From Chloroflexota bacterium (GTDB taxonomy: Bacteria; Chloroflexota; Limnocylindria; Limnocylindrales; Limnocylindraceae): a stretch of 50,507 bases of DNA. This document shows positions 32,069 through 40,325 of this stretch, one piece after another. The position numbers and the translations under genes were made by a program. The notes under the pieces were generated by a model. That model was not told where the DNA came from. It did no database searches and saw nothing but the letters and a program-made list of their open reading frames with translations. The stretch covers positions 1 through 50,507 of the forward strand of contig QWQR01000003.1 of NCBI GenBank assembly GCA_003670745.1, read 5' to 3'. Positions within the stretch are counted from its first letter, which is position 1; the number at the start of each line of letters is the position of its first letter.

Positions 32069-32326
32069 ATGATCTCTCCTGGGCTCTGTGCTGGCTGTCA
32101 GCATGCTCGGCTCCTGCGCAGCGGCAAGGGGTCGCACTTCGTGCGCTGCGGGCGCTCCGACCGTGAGGCCGACTACCCGCGCTATCCGCGCCTCCCCGTG
32201 ATGCGTTGCGCCGGCTTCGAGCAGTTGCCAGGCGACCAGAGCGAAGCGGCTAGCGGCGATGCTCCTCAGCACGACGCGTCGCCGCCATCAGCAGCTCCCA
32301 GATCGCCCGAAGATCCTCAGCGCTGA
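32069..32326 (+). CDS. Small Cys-rich hypothetical protein
   Basis: GLCAGCQHAR...SG.GS.F..C......YPRYPRLPV.RC.GF. Resembles a small conserved bacterial protein pattern from memory; start could also be 32060. Confidence 0.6.
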   Translation: MISPGLCAGCQHARLLRSGKGSHFVRCGRSDREADYPRYPRLPVMRCAGFEQLPGDQSEAASGDAPQHDASPPSAAPRSPEDPQR

Positions 32327-32528
32327 GCGGCGCGGCGCCGTGCGCAGCGATGCGCTCAAGGAGCGCCGCCTCGCGCGCTGGATCGCGTACCGGGCGGCCG
32401 AGCTCGGCTTTCGCGGCGCCGGCATCAACGCCGAGCTGCGCCCGCTCGGCGAGGAGTTCGAGGAGACGCACGTCAATCGCGTCGATCGCTGCGCGAATCT
32501 CAGCGAGGCGCTGCTCTGCGTCGCTCAT
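32250..32528 (-). CDS. Monofunctional chorismate mutase (AroQ class)
   Basis: LAEIRAAIDAIDVRLLELLAERAQL, K...RPVRDPARE; last gene of the aro operon. Confidence 0.9.
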   Translation of the reverse strand: MSDAEQRLAEIRAAIDAIDVRLLELLAERAQLGVDAGAAKAELGRPVRDPAREAALLERIAAHGAAPLSAEDLRAIWELLMAATRRAEEHRR

Positions 32529-33052
32529 GCGCCGCTCCCGCCAGCGGCACGCACCTCGGCGCGGAGATCGGCGATCAGTTGCACCGCAACCTCGTAGCCG
32601 GCGGCGCCCTGGCCGCGCACCTTGATCGCGGCAACATCTTCGACGAGGTTCACGCGGCGGAACGACTCGCGCTCGGCGGGGTCAGAGAGGTGCAGTTCGG
32701 CGAAGGGTCGCTCGACGGCGAGGAGTGCGTCGCGCAGGCTGACGCTGGTGTGGGTGAGGCCACCCGGATTGATCAGGACCCAGTCAAAGTCGCGACGATG
32801 CAGCCGGTCGATGAGTACACCCTCGTGATTCGACTGCAGCGCCTCGACGAGGCGGAGCCCAGCGGCCGACGCCGCGCTTGCGACGCGCCCCTCAATCTCA
32901 GCGAGGGTGGTGGTGCCGTAGATCTCGGGCTCGCGTTCGCCGAGCAGGTTGAGGCTCGGCCCGCTGAGCATCAGGAGGCGATCGCCGGTCGCGTGGGCTC
33001 GCGCTCGCGCGGGGAGCTCCTGCGCCATTATTCGCTTCGCGGATGCGCTCAT
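32525..33052 (-). CDS. aroQ: Type II 3-dehydroquinate dehydratase
   Basis: GPSLNLLGEREPEIYG, QSNHEG, INPGGLTHTS..LRDA, ELHLS. Confidence 0.92.
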   Translation of the reverse strand: MSASAKRIMAQELPARARAHATGDRLLMLSGPSLNLLGEREPEIYGTTTLAEIEGRVASAASAAGLRLVEALQSNHEGVLIDRLHRRDFDWVLINPGGLTHTSVSLRDALLAVERPFAELHLSDPAERESFRRVNLVEDVAAIKVRGQGAAGYEVAVQLIADLRAEVRAAGGSGA

Positions 33053-33073
33053 TGATCGCTCCTCACCCTCTGA

Positions 33074-34780
33074 CTACCGCTGAGTTGTAGTGCGCTGCGC
33101 TGCTCGACCGGCGAGCGCCGCCGTCACAGCGCTCTCGACGAGGCTAGCAGGGAGATCGTCACGCACGGTGTACCCGTCGCCCGTGGGCAGCACCCAGCGG
33201 ATCTTTCCTGCGGCAACCTTTTTGTCGCGCTGGGCGATTGTGAGGAGGTCGGCGGCGCGCTCGCTGCGCGGGGCGACGCCGAGCCCGAGACGATCGAGGA
33301 GCGCCGTTGCGCGCTCGGCACGTGGCCGAGGGGTGACGCCGAGCTCCACGCCGATATGAAGCGCCGCGCGCAGCCCGTAGCCGACCGCCTCGCCGTGAAG
33401 GATCCCGCTGTAGTCGGTCGCCTGCTCAAGGGCGTGGGCGAGGGTGTGGCCAAGGTTGAGGCTGATGCGTCCCGACGCCTCGCGCTCGTCACCGCGCACC
33501 ACCTCGCACTTCCACCAGCCGGCGCGCTCCACGATCTCTGCGAGCGTACCGTCGTCGTGCACGCTCTGGTCGGCGGCCGTAAGGCGTTCCGCCGCCGACT
33601 CAAGGAGTGCGAAGAGTCGCTCGTCGCCGAGGAGCGCGATCTTCGCCGCCTCGCCGAGCGCGGCGACGATCTCGCGAGCGGGGAGCGATCGGAGCGCGCG
33701 TAGATCAGCGATCACGGCGCGTGGTTGATGGAAGGCACCGATAAGGTTCTTCCCTTCAGGGAGATCGACTCCGGTCTTTCCGCCGAGTGAGGCGTCGAGC
33801 TGACCAGCGAGCGTTGTCGGCATGGCGATCCAGTCAATCCCCCGCAGGTAGAGTGCGGCCAGCATCCCTGCTGCGTCGGTGAGTGCACCACCTCCGATCG
33901 CGACGATCAGGTCGCCGCGCTCAACCCCCGCGCGCGCGAGCGTGCTCGCCGCGGCGCCGATCACCTCGAGACGTTTCGCCGCCTCGCCGCTCGGCAGGTC
34001 GACGCGGACGATCTCGATCCCTGCATCGCGAATCGCCGCTTCGGCCGTGTCGCCGAGGGCACGCGCCGCGTTCGGTTCGGTCACGATGACGACACGCGCC
34101 GCGCGGCGCGCCCGCAGTTCACGCAACAGCGCGCTCGCGGCGATCCCTTCACCGAGAATCCAACGCCCAGTGGGCAGCGCCGCATCGATGAGGCGTCGCT
34201 CGGGTGTCGGCTGCGCTGTGATGAGGCGGAGCGCTTCGTCGGCGAGCGAGGCGGGGTTGCGCGCGCTTGTGAGGCGCAGCCCGGTGGCATAGAAGCGCTC
34301 GCGCTCGGCGCGCAGGCGTGGCAGGTGGCGGAGCGGGTCTTCGCCGCGGAAGATTGGCCGCACGACCTTCGCCTCACGGAGTCGCGCGGCGATCGCACTG
34401 TTGGGGGCGTCGATCCAGAGGAGGTGCGCCTTTCCAGCGAGCGCCCAGCGGTTGCGTGGGTCGATCAGTGCCCCGCCACCGAGCGAGACGATGCGGTCGA
34501 TGCCGAGCGCCGCCGCCTCGCCGCGCGCTGCGTCGGTTGCTGCGCCGCTTGTGGCTGGGGCGTTGGCTGCGGTCAGCGCCGCGATCGCGGCGCGCTCTCG
34601 GGCGCGAAATCCGTCCTCCCCCTCGCGGGCGAAGATCTTCTCGGCGTTGTCATCGGGCACCCCCGTCTCCGCGATGATCACGCGGTCAAGGTCGAGGTAG
34701 GGGAGCGAGAGTCGCGTCGCGAGCTTGCGCCCAAGCGAGCTCTTGCCGGCGCCAGGGAGGCCGACGAGGATCAGGTCCAC
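33074..34780 (-). CDS. aroKB: Shikimate kinase / 3-dehydroquinate synthase fusion (AroK-AroB)
   Basis: N-terminal GLPGAGKS, DLD, EGEDGFRARE, LGGG; C-terminal GEAAK, GGGALTD, PTTLAGQLDASLGGKTG, KNLIGAFH, NLGHTLAHA, HGEAV. Confidence 0.93.
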   Translation of the reverse strand: MDLILVGLPGAGKSSLGRKLATRLSLPYLDLDRVIIAETGVPDDNAEKIFAREGEDGFRARERAAIAALTAANAPATSGAATDAARGEAAALGIDRIVSLGGGALIDPRNRWALAGKAHLLWIDAPNSAIAARLREAKVVRPIFRGEDPLRHLPRLRAERERFYATGLRLTSARNPASLADEALRLITAQPTPERRLIDAALPTGRWILGEGIAASALLRELRARRAARVVIVTEPNAARALGDTAEAAIRDAGIEIVRVDLPSGEAAKRLEVIGAAASTLARAGVERGDLIVAIGGGALTDAAGMLAALYLRGIDWIAMPTTLAGQLDASLGGKTGVDLPEGKNLIGAFHQPRAVIADLRALRSLPAREIVAALGEAAKIALLGDERLFALLESAAERLTAADQSVHDDGTLAEIVERAGWWKCEVVRGDEREASGRISLNLGHTLAHALEQATDYSGILHGEAVGYGLRAALHIGVELGVTPRPRAERATALLDRLGLGVAPRSERAADLLTIAQRDKKVAAGKIRWVLPTGDGYTVRDDLPASLVESAVTAALAGRAAQRTTTQR

Positions 34781-34788
34781 GATCGCCT

Positions 34789-36084
34789 CTAGTCGTCGCC
34801 GCCAGAGCCGGCGGCACTCGTACCGCTCGCATCGGTCTCTGGGTCGCTAGCGGCGCTGGCACCTGGTGCCGGCGTGCGTCGCGGGGCGGCCTGTCGGGCG
34901 CGGAGTGCGGCGAGGTTCGCCTCGATCTCTTCCAGCGAATCGCCGCCGAGCTTCTCAAGGAGGAACGGCACGATGGAGAGTGCAGCCATCGCCTCACCGA
35001 TCACCCCCGCGGCGGGAACGACGCTGATGTCGGAGCGCTCGTAGTGCGCCTTCTCGACCTTCTCGCCAGTGATCAGGTCAGCAGATGGGAGCGGACGTGC
35101 GAGGGTGCTGATCGGCTTCACGGCGCCACGGATCACGAGCGGCTCGCCGTTCGTGACGCCGCCGGTGAGGCCGCCCGCTCGGTTCGTGCGGTGCACCCAG
35201 GTTCCGTCGGGCTTGCGCCCCTCAATCACGTCGTGAACCTCGGAGCCGAAGATGCGCGTCTGCTCGAAGCCGAGACCAAACTCGACACCCTTCACACTCT
35301 GGATGCTTGCCATTGCGCCGGCGAGCGCCGTGTCGAGGCGACGATCCCAATGCACGTGTGAGCCGAGGCCGATTGGCAGCCCCTTCACCACCACCTCAAA
35401 GATGCCGCCGACGGTGTTTCCCGCCTCGCGTGCCGCATCAATGCGGGCGATCATGCGCTCTTCGGCCGCCGGATCGGGGCAGCGGAGCGGGCTCTCCTCA
35501 CTCTCGGCGCGACTGCGGGTGCAGCTCTTCGGATCGACGGCGACACCACCAACCTCGGCGGTGAATGACCAGATCTCCACGCCGAGTGCGCCGAGCAGCG
35601 CCTTTGCCACGCCGCCGGCTGCAACGCGGGCTGCGGTCTCGCGCGCCGAGGCGCGCTCGAGCACGTTGCGCACATCGTCGAATCCGTACTTCAGCGCGCC
35701 CGCAAGGTCGACGTGGCCGGGGCGCACGCGCGTCACGGGGATCGCGCGCTTCGTCCCGTCAGCAGCTGCGGCTGCGAGTTCAGCCGACTGATCGCTGCTC
35801 AACGGCTCAACCTGCATCACACGAGTCCAGTTCTCCCAGTCGCGGTTCTCGATGAGCAGCAGGATCGGCGAGCCAAGGGTTCGGCCGTGACGCACGCCGC
35901 TACGAATGCGGGCGCGATCCTGCTCGATCTTCTGACGTGCGCCGCGACCGTAGCCGCCCTGACGGCGGCGCAGATCCACCTCGAGGTCGCCCTCCGTGAG
36001 CGGGACGCCTGCGGGCATCCCTTCGACGATCACGCCGAGTTCGGGGCCGTGAGATTCGCCTGCGGTGAGGAATCGGAACGTCAT
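34789..36084 (-). CDS. aroC: Chorismate synthase
   Basis: TAGESHGP, RRQGGYGRG, RPGHVD, ERASARET, SIQSVKGVEFG, NRAGGLTGG, KPISTL, RSDIS.VPAA. Confidence 0.97.
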   Translation of the reverse strand: MTFRFLTAGESHGPELGVIVEGMPAGVPLTEGDLEVDLRRRQGGYGRGARQKIEQDRARIRSGVRHGRTLGSPILLLIENRDWENWTRVMQVEPLSSDQSAELAAAAADGTKRAIPVTRVRPGHVDLAGALKYGFDDVRNVLERASARETAARVAAGGVAKALLGALGVEIWSFTAEVGGVAVDPKSCTRSRAESEESPLRCPDPAAEERMIARIDAAREAGNTVGGIFEVVVKGLPIGLGSHVHWDRRLDTALAGAMASIQSVKGVEFGLGFEQTRIFGSEVHDVIEGRKPDGTWVHRTNRAGGLTGGVTNGEPLVIRGAVKPISTLARPLPSADLITGEKVEKAHYERSDISVVPAAGVIGEAMAALSIVPFLLEKLGGDSLEEIEANLAALRARQAAPRRTPAPGASAASDPETDASGTSAAGSGGDD

Positions 36085-36938
36085 GACTTCCCTCCTGTTC
36101 CCTTCAATAATGCCGTCTCCAGAGCCGCGCGCATCACGGCGATCGGTGCAACCCGTCCGGTCCAGAGGGTGAAGGCCGCCGCCCCCTGCCCGAGGAGCAT
36201 CTCGCGGCCATCAATCGCCTCGGCGCCGCCGGCGCGCGCGGCGCGCACGAGCGGGGTCTCGTCTGGCCCGTAGGCGAGATCGATCACCAGCTGCCCAGCG
36301 TGAAAGGCTCCTGCAGGGAGTGGCGACTCGCCCTTCAAGCCGAGGCTGGTGGCGTTGATGATGAGCCCGGCGCGCGTCGCCTCGTCGGCGAGGACGCTCT
36401 CGTGCCAGGGGACGGGCCGCAGGGTGAGGTGCGGTGCGGCCGCCGAGACCGCCCGCGCCAACTTCTCGCCGCGATGGAGGTGGCGGTTCGCAATCGCGAT
36501 GCGCGCCGCACCAGAGGTCGCGAGGACGGCGAGGACGGCACGAGCACCGCCACCGGCGCCGAGGAGGAGCACGTCGCGGGGTGGCTGGCGGCCGTCGACG
36601 AGCAGCTCGAGGGCGCTGCGGAAGCCGGTCACGTCGGTATTGCGTCCGATCAGTCGTGCCCCTGCGCGGACGATCGTGTTCACCGCACCGACCGCCGTCG
36701 CCTCCTCATCGATCGTGTCGAGGAGCGAGCCGATCGCCTCCTTATGGGGGATCGTGACGTTGGCGCCGATCGCGTCGGGGTCGGCGCGAAGGGCGGCGAC
36801 CGCCTCTGCGAGGTCGCCAGGCGCGACGTTACGCAGTTCGTAGCGGACCGGGAGGTGCTCATGGTCGAACGCCGCCTGCTGAAAGGCGGGGGAGAGGCTG
36901 TGCGCGACCGGATGGCCAAAGAGGAGGGCGTGCTTCAT
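36081..36938 (-). CDS. aroE: Shikimate dehydrogenase
   Basis: GHPVAHSLSP, GANVTIPHK, GAVNT, NTD, GAGGGARA, NRH, NATSLG, DLAY. Confidence 0.95.
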   Translation of the reverse strand: MKHALLFGHPVAHSLSPAFQQAAFDHEHLPVRYELRNVAPGDLAEAVAALRADPDAIGANVTIPHKEAIGSLLDTIDEEATAVGAVNTIVRAGARLIGRNTDVTGFRSALELLVDGRQPPRDVLLLGAGGGARAVLAVLATSGAARIAIANRHLHRGEKLARAVSAAAPHLTLRPVPWHESVLADEATRAGLIINATSLGLKGESPLPAGAFHAGQLVIDLAYGPDETPLVRAARAGGAEAIDGREMLLGQGAAAFTLWTGRVAPIAVMRAALETALLKGTGGKS

Positions 36939-38275
36939 GCGACGCCCCCTGCGACCCGTTCAAGGTCGGCGAAGAAGGTTGGGTAGCTGACCGCAGCCGA
37001 ACCCTCGTCGTCGATCTCCACCGGGGCGGCACCAACGGCCGCGGCGATCGCAAAGGTCATCGCGAGGCGGTGATCTCCACGCGCCTCTGGGGCGCCACCC
37101 ACCGGGCGCCCACCACCGGGGAACGAGAGGTCGTCGCCGTTCACGTGGGCCACGAGGCCGAGCGCGGTCAGCCCATCGGCGATGCCGGCGATCCGGTCAC
37201 TCTCCTTGGCGCGCAGCTCTCCCGCCCCACGAATCGTTGTCTCGCCGGTTGCGCAGGCGGCGGCAAGCGAGAGGGCAGGGATCTCGTCGATCGCCAGCGC
37301 TACGTCGGCGGGGGAGATCGCCGCGCCGTGAAGGGCGGCGCTGCGCACGCGCAGGTCGCCGATCGGCTCCCCTGAACCGTCGTCTGCTCGTGGGGTCTCG
37401 TCGATGTTCGCCCCCATGCGTCGCAGTAGGTCGATCGCGTGGCGTCGTGTGGGGTTGAGCGAGACGCCGCGAATCGTTAGATCGGCGTCGGGGTGGAGGC
37501 TTGCAGCGACGAGCCAGAAGGTCGCCGACGAGGGGTCGCCAGGAACGTGGACCGTGGGAATAGCGCGAAGCGCGCCGGGGCGGAGCGTGACCACTGCGCC
37601 ACCGTCAGCTCGCACCTCTCGGGTGAGGGCGGCGCCCCTGGCGACAAGCATCCGTTCACTGTGATCGCGCGTCGCGATGGGCTCCGTATAGATCGTCTCG
37701 CCCGTCGCGGCGAGCCCCGCGATCAGAACGCACCCCTTTACTTGGGCGCTCGGTGTGGCGGGGCTCCAACTGATGCCCTTAAGGCCGCCGCCGGTGATCT
37801 CGAGTGGCGCCGTGTCGCGCCCGCCGCCGCTCGCCGCAACCCCCATGGCGCGGAGCGGCTCAAGGACGCGGCCCATCGGGCGTCGGCGCAACGATGCATC
37901 GCCATCAAGACGATGGGTTCCAGTGATCCCCGCAACCAGTCCGGCGCCGAGGCGCATCGTGGTCCCAGAGTTGCCACAGTCCAGGCCTCCGCCGCCAGCG
38001 ACGGCGCGGAGCCCGTCGCGGCCAGGGGAGCGCACGCGCCAGCGTGCCGTGCCGGGCGCATCGTCGGGGGCGGCGGGGAGTCGCTCCACCTCGGCGCCGA
38101 GGGCGCCGATGACACCGGCCGTCGAGCGCACGTCGTGACCGTCGCCCGCGCCGATGATCAGCGTCTCGCCGACCGCAATCGCCGCAAAGAGGAGGGCCCG
38201 GTGGCTGATCGACTTATCGCCCGGGAGGCGCAACTCACCGCGGAGGCGCGCGGCGGGGCGCACGGTGCGTGACAC
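36935..38275 (-). CDS. aroA: 3-phosphoshikimate 1-carboxyvinyltransferase (EPSP synthase)
   Basis: PGDKSISHR, DCGNSGTT.R, SAQVK, RDHSERML, PGDPSSA, IDEIP, ELRAKESDR, DHRLAM. Start reassigned to GTG 38275, just after the aroF stop. Confidence 0.95.
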   Translation of the reverse strand: MSRTVRPAARLRGELRLPGDKSISHRALLFAAIAVGETLIIGAGDGHDVRSTAGVIGALGAEVERLPAAPDDAPGTARWRVRSPGRDGLRAVAGGGGLDCGNSGTTMRLGAGLVAGITGTHRLDGDASLRRRPMGRVLEPLRAMGVAASGGGRDTAPLEITGGGLKGISWSPATPSAQVKGCVLIAGLAATGETIYTEPIATRDHSERMLVARGAALTREVRADGGAVVTLRPGALRAIPTVHVPGDPSSATFWLVAASLHPDADLTIRGVSLNPTRRHAIDLLRRMGANIDETPRADDGSGEPIGDLRVRSAALHGAAISPADVALAIDEIPALSLAAACATGETTIRGAGELRAKESDRIAGIADGLTALGLVAHVNGDDLSFPGGGRPVGGAPEARGDHRLAMTFAIAAAVGAAPVEIDDEGSAAVSYPTFFADLERVAGGVA

Positions 38276-38277
38276 GG

Positions 38278-39309
<1,032 letters not shown>

Positions 39310-39354
39310 CTTTGTCTCCACTCTCTTCGTCTCGCCCAGCGAGCTCACTTGGGG

Positions 39355-39388
39355 AAAAAGAAAGGAGCAGAGGTCTCGCCTCTGCTCC
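39355..39388 (-). terminator. Intrinsic terminator (attenuator) in the aroF leader
   Basis: Minus strand GGAGCAGAGG-cgaga-CCTCTGCTCC-TTTCTTTTT: 10-bp perfect stem plus U-tract, ending 45 nt before the aroF ATG. Confidence 0.9.
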
Positions 39389-39432
39389 ATCCCGGCAGGA
39401 CCGCCGGTCCGACGCTTATGCGTCGAGGCGGG

Positions 39433-39471
39433 TCATGCCGGGTATCGAAAGTAATAGCGGTGTCGGTGCAT
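39433..39471 (-). CDS. Putative aro operon leader peptide MHRHRYYFRYPA (Tyr/Phe-rich; not in ORF track)
   Basis: ATG CAC CGA CAC CGC TAT TAC TTT CGA TAC CCG GCA TGA, located between a promoter and a terminator. Confidence 0.8.
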   Translation of the reverse strand: MHRHRYYFRYPA

Positions 39472-39477
39472 ACCCCC

Positions 39478-39506
39478 ACCCTACGGGGAAGGGGGCGAGG
39501 GGTCAA
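39478..39506 (-). promoter_or_regulatory. Sigma70-type promoter of the aro operon
   Basis: TTGACC (39506-39501), 17-nt spacer, TAGGGT (39483-39478), then 6 nt to the leader ATG. Confidence 0.8.
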
Positions 39507-39936
39507 GGTGTGCACCGTCCGCCGCGGTCGACCCCCGCCGACCCCTCTCCAGGGTCGTCGCCTCGGACACTTGGGCGGCAGCGCAGGTCTCCGTCGTGCC
39601 ACGTGCCGGCAAATGCGCGGCAATGCGTCGTTGCGGCGCCGCCGGCCGTAGAAAGCGCGCAAAACCGGGGCGATTAGTCGCTGCCCAGGGCCTGCCTGCG
39701 TCACATTGCGACATCGAAAAACCCTGATTTCTCGCACGAAATCGCACTTTTTCGCCTTTTTCGCGTTTGCTGCGTTGCAAGCTGCGCCGGCGCGCGCCAA
39801 TTGCGCATCGGTCACGTCAACGTTGTCGCTGAGGGCCCAAAAGTGGCAAAAAGTCGGGGCCAATTAGGGGTCTTGACAACGTCAGTAGGCCGCCCCCGGC
39901 CCCCCTCTAAATAAATCTTGCGCAACAGGGTTGCGG

Positions 39937-39965
39937 TTATCCACATTGTGTTTTACTTTTCCACA
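39937..39965 (+). promoter_or_regulatory. Two direct-orientation DnaA-box matches (TTATCCACA, TTTTCCACA)
   Basis: 39937-39945 is a perfect R1-type box; 39957-39965 fits TTWTNCACA. Both lie in an unusually AT-rich patch. Confidence 0.55.
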
Positions 39966-40031
39966 AGCCCCGTATTTCGGGGCGGAGTTATGGGGGGTCC
40001 GATTACGGGCCCACCAGAGTGGAGGTCAGAA

Positions 40032-40325
40032 ATGGCTGCAAAGAAGCGAAAGGCCGCTGCGAAGCGTAAGCCTGCTGCCAAGAAGCGCAAGGTCGCTAAG
40101 AAGACCGTTGCGAAGAAGGCTCCTGCTAAGCGCAAGAAGCGCAAGGCTGCGAAGAAGGCCGTCGCGAAGAAGGCCCCAGCCAAGCGCAAGAAGCGCAAGG
40201 CTGCGAAGAAGAGCACGGCCAAGAAGGCCCCAGCCAAGCGCAAGAAGCGCAAGGCTGCGAAGAAGAGCACTGCCAAGAAGGCCGCTCCGAAGCGCCGCCG
40301 CCGCAAGGCTGCCAAGAAGGCGTAA
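40032..40325 (+). CDS. Histone H1-like (Hc2/HctB-like) Lys/Ala/Arg-rich nucleoid protein
   Basis: 97 aa almost entirely K/A/R/P; SD GGAGG at 40021-25; start reassigned to ATG 40032; terminator downstream. Confidence 0.8.
   Translation: MAAKKRKAAAKRKPAAKKRKVAKKTVAKKAPAKRKKRKAAKKAVAKKAPAKRKKRKAAKKSTAKKAPAKRKKRKAAKKSTAKKAAPKRRRRKAAKKA
40110..40272 (+). repeat. About 3 copies of a 54-nt unit encoding AKKAPAKRKKRKAAKK(AV/ST)
   Basis: Read directly from the sequence and translation. Confidence 0.85.

Follow-up and report, generated by a model that had tools for sequence, protein, structure and literature searches.

In the classical attenuators of Escherichia coli, trpL and pheL, a short leader open reading frame (ORF) with codons for the end product is followed by a 1:2-type hairpin, whose 5' strand is translated and whose loop lies near the stop codon, and then by an intrinsic terminator. 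The Trp codons of trpL are located within region 1, the masking of which lets a 2:3 antiterminator of about -9 kcal/mol form. The leader ORF of the enterobacterial pyrBI operon continues through the terminator, with pausing that depends on uridine triphosphate (UTP) as the signal. For the aromatic pathway, the aroR leader of Corynebacterium glutamicum, a Phe-Tyr-Phe leader peptide encoded before aroF, is described as attenuating transcription, which is raised when the ribosome stalls at the Phe/Tyr codons (Neshat et al. 2014 via PMC11802643, PMC7356990). Leader peptides can also start at the mRNA's 5' end: in Deinococcus deserti, mapped transcription start sites (TSSs) led to the proposal of fourteen leaderless leader peptides (PMC4007540), and leaderless polycysteine small ORFs (sORFs) act as attenuators in mycobacteria (10.1101/834739). 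Here we analyzed a stretch of 50,507 nucleotides (nt) of contig QWQR01000003.1 from a Chloroflexota bacterium of the order Limnocylindrales (the window), in which a candidate attenuator lies before a shikimate operon headed by aroF. As in aroR, so far as these accounts describe it, a Phe/Tyr leader peptide is encoded immediately 5' of the gene for 3-deoxy-D-arabino-heptulosonate 7-phosphate (DAHP) synthase. The two differ in host and operon, aroR being from Actinomycetota and heading an aroF-containing operon, whereas this leader belongs to Chloroflexota and heads a seven-gene shikimate operon with chorismate mutase; the Chloroflexota leader also has no detectable antiterminator and carries a second, coupled mini-ORF. 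No description of aromatic attenuators in Chloroflexota was found in the papers searched.

Judged from its sequence and conservation, this leader is very probably a ribosome-mediated aromatic (Phe/Tyr) attenuator gating the whole shikimate operon (Table 1; coordinates are positions in the window, and the leader, its ORFs and the operon all lie on the minus strand). The first upstream ORF (uORF1) encodes MHRHRYYFRYPA, a short leader peptide with codons for end products of the pathway, four of its 12 codons being aromatic and falling within five consecutive positions. Among 30 relatives found via AroF (AroF identity 58-99%), 29 had an ORF of 11-12 codons with 2-5 Phe/Tyr codons ending in CCG-GCA-TGA, together with the hairpin and the terminator. 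A DNA pattern search matched at least 120 places, and 86 further loci from it had both a terminator and an 11-12-codon leader with Phe/Tyr and in some cases Trp codons. The leader orthologues in more than 100 species kept 2-5 Phe, Tyr or Trp codons, and their peptides diverged in sequence (MANRFYFRYPA, MTTYRYFRSPV, MCTIYRFTCPA, MERIFFFYRYPA). Trp-containing peptides, for example MNAPYWFTPPA and MKHWFYFRRPA, were present among the pattern matches; since the Trp codon UGG is purine-rich, they show that selection is on the aromatic codons and not on a pyrimidine tract. The last aromatic codon was UUU 64 times and UUC once in leaders across the phylum, and the aro genes of the window favored TTC over TTT by 27 to 12. 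The pattern scan of named genomes placed the leader in the order Limnocylindrales of the Chloroflexota, where an identical uORF was found in Candidatus Limnocylindrus sp. and where Candidatus Aquidulcis frankliniae is a member of the same genus. The source organism, a freshwater bacterium which has a genome of about 1 Mb and a G+C content of 68% in the window, is represented by metagenome-assembled genomes (MAGs) alone.

Structural analysis of the leader showed a long hairpin, P1, followed by the terminator hairpin, T. The minimum free energy (MFE) of the whole leader was -61.8 kcal/mol (z = -5.67 against 200 shuffles). In a phylum alignment based on a covariance model, compensatory changes were found at all 13 main-stem pairs and all 7 inner pairs of P1, and the modelled structure of P1 and T was 92% paired against 36-57% with slid partners; such an alignment is biased towards the structure, but the margin is large. 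RNAalifold on a plain MAFFT alignment recovered the invariant helices only, and the inner stems of P1 were recovered with relaxed settings and the model-based alignment. T was called by a terminator scan with its 10-bp GC-rich stem. As in classical attenuators, it separates the leader ORF from the first structural gene, and it was conserved in all relatives. Its stem core AGCAGAGG/CCTCTGCT was near-invariant throughout the phylum, and the stem AGCAGAGG/CCUCUGCU was kept likewise, including in genomes of 40% G+C and in leaders for other amino acids, while P1 drifted by compensation. The loop of T ranged from 3 to 10 nt, and its 5' arm was purine-rich and Shine-Dalgarno-like (GAGG). The motif of the stem was restricted to these leaders, each genome having one or two, and additional matches were palindromes of coding regions without a U-tract, so a generic terminator or repeat was rejected. 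A DNA operator is unlikely because the spacing of the palindrome varies from 3 to 10 nt. Pairing of the aromatic codons with the 5' arm of T as an extension of P1 (about -6 kcal/mol in ribosome-free folds) was rejected as the cause of the terminator conservation because it did not exceed what base composition would give (z = 0.22), a stalled ribosome would cover the pairing, and the Ile/Tyr paralogues retain the same terminator. A search for kissing contacts between the P1 loop and the terminator, judged by eye only, gave no consistent complementarity.

The position of the codons relative to P1 was strictly kept. In 82/96 leaders of the phylum, the last aromatic codon had its first base 6-8 nt before the base at which P1 starts to pair, so that the regulatory codons lie 5' of P1 and not within it, unlike those of trpL in region 1. 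In the window, the main cluster closes with UUU (39450-48) and P1 begins at 39442, and an extra UAC (39444-42, codon 10) begins 2 nt before P1. The spacer between P1 and T was 0-6 nt across the family and 3 nt in the window. The ribosome footprint and helicase distances that enter the stall geometry are general knowledge; with them, a ribosome holding the last aromatic codon in its A site would stand at the foot of P1 and would open a few base pairs only. The leader shares with trpL and pheL the general plan, and departs from them in codons placed 6-8 nt before P1, in the lack of a detectable 2:3 or 1:3 helix, in a P1 placed 0-6 nt from the terminator and in having no Rfam match.

A second short frame, uORF2, has its stop in the P1 apical loop and begins with an AUG that shares bases with the uORF1 stop codon UGA (AUGA). 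This six-codon frame closing at the stop in the P1 loop was found in 106/108 Limnocylindrales leaders and in 43/44 non-redundant ones, and it was preserved where the length of the loop differed. The stop in the loop was TAG in 51, TGA in 34 and TAA in 21 of these leaders, and the third frame was free of stops in 75/108. The exchange of three stop codons at one in-frame position of the loop argues for selection on translation, and we infer that uORF2 is translated. In other families, a single ORF crosses the 5' strand of P1 and reaches the stop in the apical loop, as with FYFSCGMTGLRR followed by its stop codon.

The promoter-like sequence TTGACC-N17-TAGGGT lies just upstream, with 6 nt from the end of the -10 hexamer to the ATG of uORF1 (39471). 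A TTGACN-N16-18-TANNNT pattern was present just 5' of the uORF in 99/112 Limnocylindrales leaders. The gap from the -10 hexamer to the AUG was 6-7 nt in all 22 members of the genus of the window, leaving the leader AUG no room for a Shine-Dalgarno sequence, and 9-14 nt in the sister family. In the genus, the mRNA is therefore probably leaderless, or has a 5' untranslated region (UTR) of a few nt, on the basis of this spacing; the wider spacing of the sister family implies a predicted 5' UTR of a few nt. Against these points, a generic sigma-70 scan did not call the promoter, because TAGGGT agrees with TATAAT at 3/6 positions, and the putative promoter is assigned by its conservation and not by the scan. 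Like the leaders of Deinococcus and mycobacteria, the leader would encode a peptide of about 10 residues from a 5'-terminal AUG before genes for amino acid biosynthesis or tRNA synthetases; the TSSs of those leaders were mapped experimentally, whereas the leaderless state here is taken from promoter spacing. Mycobacterial leaderless sORFs are said to act mainly on the translation of the downstream gene.

The scaffold is not confined to the shikimate operon. A covariance model (R1), built from 43 diverse leaders and searched within Chloroflexota (401 genomes, 217 genera), gave full-length matches in 127/401 genomes and 63/217 genera. Together with its presence in 29/30 relatives, so wide a recurrence of the layout goes far beyond chance. 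Of about 60 matches that were examined, 40 lay directly before an aroF-type DAHP synthase gene. The same arrangement of P1 and terminator was also found before tyrA, a type I-alpha DAHP synthase gene, a class I Tyr/Trp-tRNA synthetase gene and a CimA/LeuA-like gene, and the leader codons changed with the gene: the tRNA synthetase leader had a single UAU at +6 from P1 and the CimA/LeuA-like leader had AUC..AUU at +8. Leaders L200, L202, L204, L228 and L184 carried the scaffold before Tyr/Trp-tRNA synthetase, HMGL-like CimA/LeuA and prephenate dehydrogenase genes in other Chloroflexota. In family f3 of the same class (L223, L224, L240), a 9-codon uORF, MNHPFWYYA and its stop, ends 2 nt before P1; GCAGAGG lies inside P1, a different terminator comes next, and the partner CCUCUGC is found 3' of the U-tract of that terminator, an arrangement by which the invariant pair may have a role beyond termination. 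Leaders typical of Limnocylindrales were also carried by short contigs from soil MAGs that bear the labels Polarisedimenticolia, Eisenbacteria and Verrucomicrobiia (L046, L082, L098, L105), which are probably mis-binned contigs and not occurrences outside Chloroflexota. A scan of the leader against Rfam with E up to 10 gave as best match an unrelated small RNA model with 19.7 bits, short of the cut-off of 39. Ten leaders spanning the phylum matched no Rfam family at the gathering score and no T-box, and no model in Rfam 15 (including Phe_leader, Trp_leader, the Leu/phe, His, Thr and Leu leaders and T-box) covers the leader.

Given such an attenuator, the most familiar means of switching would be the one of the trp type that had been proposed for the window, in which a ribosome stalled on the aromatic codons masks CCCGGCA, and CGCCUC pairs with GAGGCG to block the terminator. 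CGCCTC (39430-39425) and GAGGCG (39382-39377) are present and complementary, and the MFE fold of the window's leader with a ribosome over CCCGG contained exactly this helix. Pairing of the 5' arm gained -6.4 kcal/mol in the stalled state, -4.9 once the ribosome had moved to the UGA and -2.3 once it stood at the loop stop, and comparable short matches were seen in L026 (GCCUC:GAGGC) and L023 (CUGCUC:GAGCAG). The helix, however, was confined to the species of the window, its z of -1.64 against shuffles was marginal, and a leader of the same genus (L004) gained -0.4 kcal/mol. With the ribosome at the UGA, -4.9 kcal/mol of 5'-arm pairing was left, which means that the helix hardly separates the two states. 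For about 100 leaders compared with dinucleotide shuffles, complementarity to the 5' arm and loop of the terminator was as expected from the shuffles: the mean z was +0.13 with the upper P1 5' strand as partner (15% of leaders below z -1), 0.02 with the P1 3' strand and 0.22 with the 22 nt 5' of P1. With sliding 10-nt duplexes, the profile for the terminator 5' arm stayed flat between -3.5 and -7 kcal/mol. The shuffle test on single sequences has low power, as the genuine 2:3 helix of trpL reaches z = -1.2 only, and the basis of the conclusion on the antiterminator is therefore the family mean together with the scan of folds under masks. A scan of the ribosome's leading edge along the leader measured the energy gained if the 5' arm can pair while the 3' arm is still absent. 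Every position gave -1 to -4.6 kcal/mol, with no antiterminator window, whereas the trpL control went from 0 to between -6 and -9.3 across region 1 and returned to 0. The constrained folds used four ribosome masks; the helix of the original prediction appeared in the stalled fold of the window's leader, and no ribosome position gave an antiterminator across the family. The aromatic codons of most family members lie 5' of P1, and a stalled ribosome would thus open a few base pairs at most and would barely mask CCCGGCA in the family as a whole, although in the window a stall at the UAC of codon 10 would reach further in. A classical, mutually exclusive antiterminator helix was not detectable, pseudoknots and tertiary contacts being outside the search, and the trp-type switch is improbable as the explanation of the leader.

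The near-invariance of AGCAGAGG/CCUCUGCU across the phylum and in paralogues for other amino acids, while P1 drifts, is what would be expected if a trans-acting factor read the invariant junction of terminator and P1 and the uORF only positioned or timed the event. An RNA-binding protein, a tRNA or a ribosome on the Shine-Dalgarno-like GAGG could be such a factor, and the restriction of the stem motif to these leaders and the purine-rich 5' arm fit this explanation too. The leader codons (aromatic, Tyr, Ile), on the other hand, track the downstream gene, so a common factor cannot supply the specificity, a loop of 3-10 nt fits a hairpin better than a fixed protein site, and no candidate factor was identified, with no T-box features and no Rfam match; a trans-acting reader of the junction seems to us quite improbable. 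The leader might also be no switch at all, but a constitutive partial terminator or a stabilizing 5' structure with a small ORF that is untranslated or incidental. For this speaks one leader (L018, in G014) that retains P1 and the terminator without the promoter and the first 7 uORF codons. In over 100 species, however, the ORF was kept along with its length, aromatic content and frame despite codon changes that included the purine-rich UGG, TAG, TGA and TAA interchanged at the fixed in-frame position of the loop, and the identity of the regulatory codons fitted the downstream pathway in the paralogues, so that an explanation without a switch is very unlikely. L018 itself (G014:C30), from a member of the genus, has a deletion of about 215 nt, with P1, the terminator and aroF kept; the deletion creates a junction, CCCCUCU, with strong complementarity to the 5' arm of the terminator (-14.3 kcal/mol). 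Either the leader was lost naturally in L018 or the deletion is an artefact of assembly.

Taken together, we judge it probable that the leader is best explained as an attenuator sensing charged Phe- and Tyr-tRNA through an intact or opened P1, with a guessed steric step. With ample Phe/Tyr-tRNA, the ribosome would enter P1, restart at AUGA and park at the loop stop, and P1 would be held open while the polymerase crosses the terminator, so that transcription ends. With scarce Phe or Tyr, the ribosome would wait 6-8 nt before P1 with the hungry codon in its A site, P1 would stay intact and the polymerase would read through. A stable P1 with the ribosome at its base, flush against the terminator, may hinder the basal terminator pairs in the exit channel of the polymerase, because closing these pairs would need upstream RNA to thread out, and here 0-6 nt are followed by a rigid GC-rich helix. 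Since P1 and the terminator have no bases in common, P1 would have to act by steric or kinetic means, and a non-overlapping steric antiterminator was guessed because no alternative RNA pairing was detectable. Like pyrBI, the proposed mode lets the position of the leader ribosome relative to the polymerase, and not an RNA antiterminator, decide termination; unlike pyrBI, in which the leader ORF enters the terminator, translation here ends 28 nt (uORF2, at 39416) or 45 nt (uORF1, at 39433) 5' of the terminator stem, which starts at 39388, and the proposed signal is the supply of aminoacyl-tRNA and not UTP-dependent pausing. Several points weigh against this mode. Its steric step is a conjecture drawn from reasoning, for which no tested precedent is known to us; every MFE fold of the free RNA holds both P1 and the terminator, and the model therefore depends on the geometry of polymerase and ribosome; folding energies under hard ribosome-footprint masks are crude; and the model leaves the near-invariant sequence of the terminator stem unexplained. 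Provided that the leader is an attenuator, we hold the intact-P1, steric mode at somewhat less than even confidence and regard a cryptic, lineage-specific RNA antiterminator as unlikely, the remainder falling to a trans factor or something unconsidered. It is possible, though doubtful, that such attenuators without an RNA antiterminator operate throughout the phylum, with the unzipping of P1 deciding and the scaffold re-coded for Phe/Tyr/Trp, Tyr and Ile genes.

Table 1. Predicted features of the leader and the shikimate operon in the window
Feature	Coordinates	Strand	Details and basis
Promoter-like TTGACC-N17-TAGGGT	39478..39506	minus	TTGACC 39506-39501, TAGGGT 39483-39478; sequence and conservation
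uORF1, MHRHRYYFRYPA and stop	39433..39471	minus	ATG CAC CGA CAC CGC TAT TAC TTT CGA TAC CCG GCA TGA
uORF1 aromatic codons and stop		minus	TAT 39456-54, TAC 39453-51, TTT 39450-48, TAC 39444-42; stop TGA 39435-33
uORF2	39416..39436	minus	ATG ACC CGC CTC GAC GCA TAA; AUG overlaps the uORF1 UGA (AUGA), stop in the P1 apical loop
Long hairpin P1	39391..39442	minus	Base CCCGGCA (39442-39436)/TGCCGGG (39397-39391)
P1 inner stems	within 39391..39442	minus	Middle GACC/GGTC and GCC/GGC; apex CGACGC-ATAA-GCGTCG
Intrinsic terminator T	39355..39388	minus	GGAGCAGAGG 39388-39379, loop CGAGA, CCTCTGCTCC 39373-39364, U-tract TTTCTTTTT 39363-39355
Small hairpin CTCGC-TGG-GCGAG	39331..39343	minus	Between the terminator and the aroF ribosome-binding site (RBS)
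Shikimate operon	32250..39309	minus	Pfam
aroF	39309-38278	minus	DAHP_synth_1 (3.6e-82) and N-terminal ferredoxin-like domain
aroA, 5-enolpyruvylshikimate-3-phosphate (EPSP) synthase	down to 36935, start uncertain	minus	Pfam
aroE, shikimate dehydrogenase	36938-36081	minus	Pfam
aroC, chorismate synthase	36084-34789	minus	Pfam
aroK-aroB fusion, shikimate kinase-3-dehydroquinate (DHQ) synthase	34780-33074	minus	Pfam
aroQ, type II dehydroquinase	33052-32525	minus	Pfam
Chorismate mutase, type II	32528-32250	minus	Pfam

The start of aroF at 39309 is preceded by GGAG (39319-39316) and is supported by an N-terminal alignment of 30 homologues. The longest ORF for aroF (370 aa, 39390-38278) begins at an ATG located in the spacer of 3 nt that separates P1 from T and runs in frame through the terminator into aroF, so that gene callers may mis-start aroF; relatives in the genus carry ATG-TGA at this position of the spacer. 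At the place of the small hairpin between the terminator and aroF, relatives had different self-complementary sequences (GCGG..CCGC, GCCGG..CCGGC), which suggests a putative conserved stem after the terminator and before the aroF RBS. In one leader (L020, G031:C32), about 200 nt of tandem-like repeats (GGCGCCAGGGACAGC...GGTGTCAAGGACAGCGTGAGGAAC) were inserted between the leader and aroF, and the distance from the uORF stop to aroF was 335 nt compared with about 120 nt elsewhere. On the plus strand, a small divergent gene at about 39918-40325 encodes a Lys/Ala-rich basic repeat protein (MAAKKRKAAAKRKPAAKKRK...) resembling histone H1/HC2, with a GGAGG RBS, its own terminator and no Pfam match; the same gene lies 5' of the leader in G014, and a gene for a haloacid dehalogenase (HAD) hydrolase follows beyond it in the window.

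All sequence elements named by the original prediction were present at the positions given. The hexamers of the promoter, the 12-codon aromatic uORF at 39471-39433, the protector hairpin CCCGGCA/TGCCGGG with its inner stems, the 10-bp terminator stem with its U-tract, and the order aroF-aroA-aroE-aroC-aroKB-aroQ-chorismate mutase, which Pfam confirmed for all seven genes, were present as described. Tyr/Phe-rich uORFs and covarying stems were both found 5' of aroF in related genomes, and a leaderless uORF is probable in the genus. The two CGA codons flanking the sensing codons, which had been pointed out, are not a conserved feature, and the prediction, right in kind, was wrong in its specific antiterminator. 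Its novelty was overstated as well: an aromatic leader before aroF has been published for C. glutamicum, as aroR is described there (PMC11802643), and leaderless leaders have precedents in Deinococcus deserti (PMC4007540) and mycobacteria (10.1101/834739). Since leader-peptide attenuation is textbook knowledge and both advertised novelties have been published elsewhere, the kind of switch is unsurprising.

As predicted from its sequence, the element is ordinary in function, and is unusual in a well-conserved architecture that belongs to an uncatalogued RNA family. This conserved family occurs in about a third of the sampled Chloroflexota and is absent from Rfam. The point on which it differs from the Yanofsky model is the defining one, namely a terminator without a detectable competing helix, and the strictly kept geometry of ribosome and hairpin, the stop codon in the loop and the terminator stem frozen throughout the phylum merit attention. 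If the non-overlapping mode is true, the leader would be a simple and testable case in which the ribosome controls intrinsic termination through geometry and not through refolding of the RNA. The covariance model could be used to annotate the aromatic and some Tyr/Ile regulons in Chloroflexota and to correct the calls of aroF starts.

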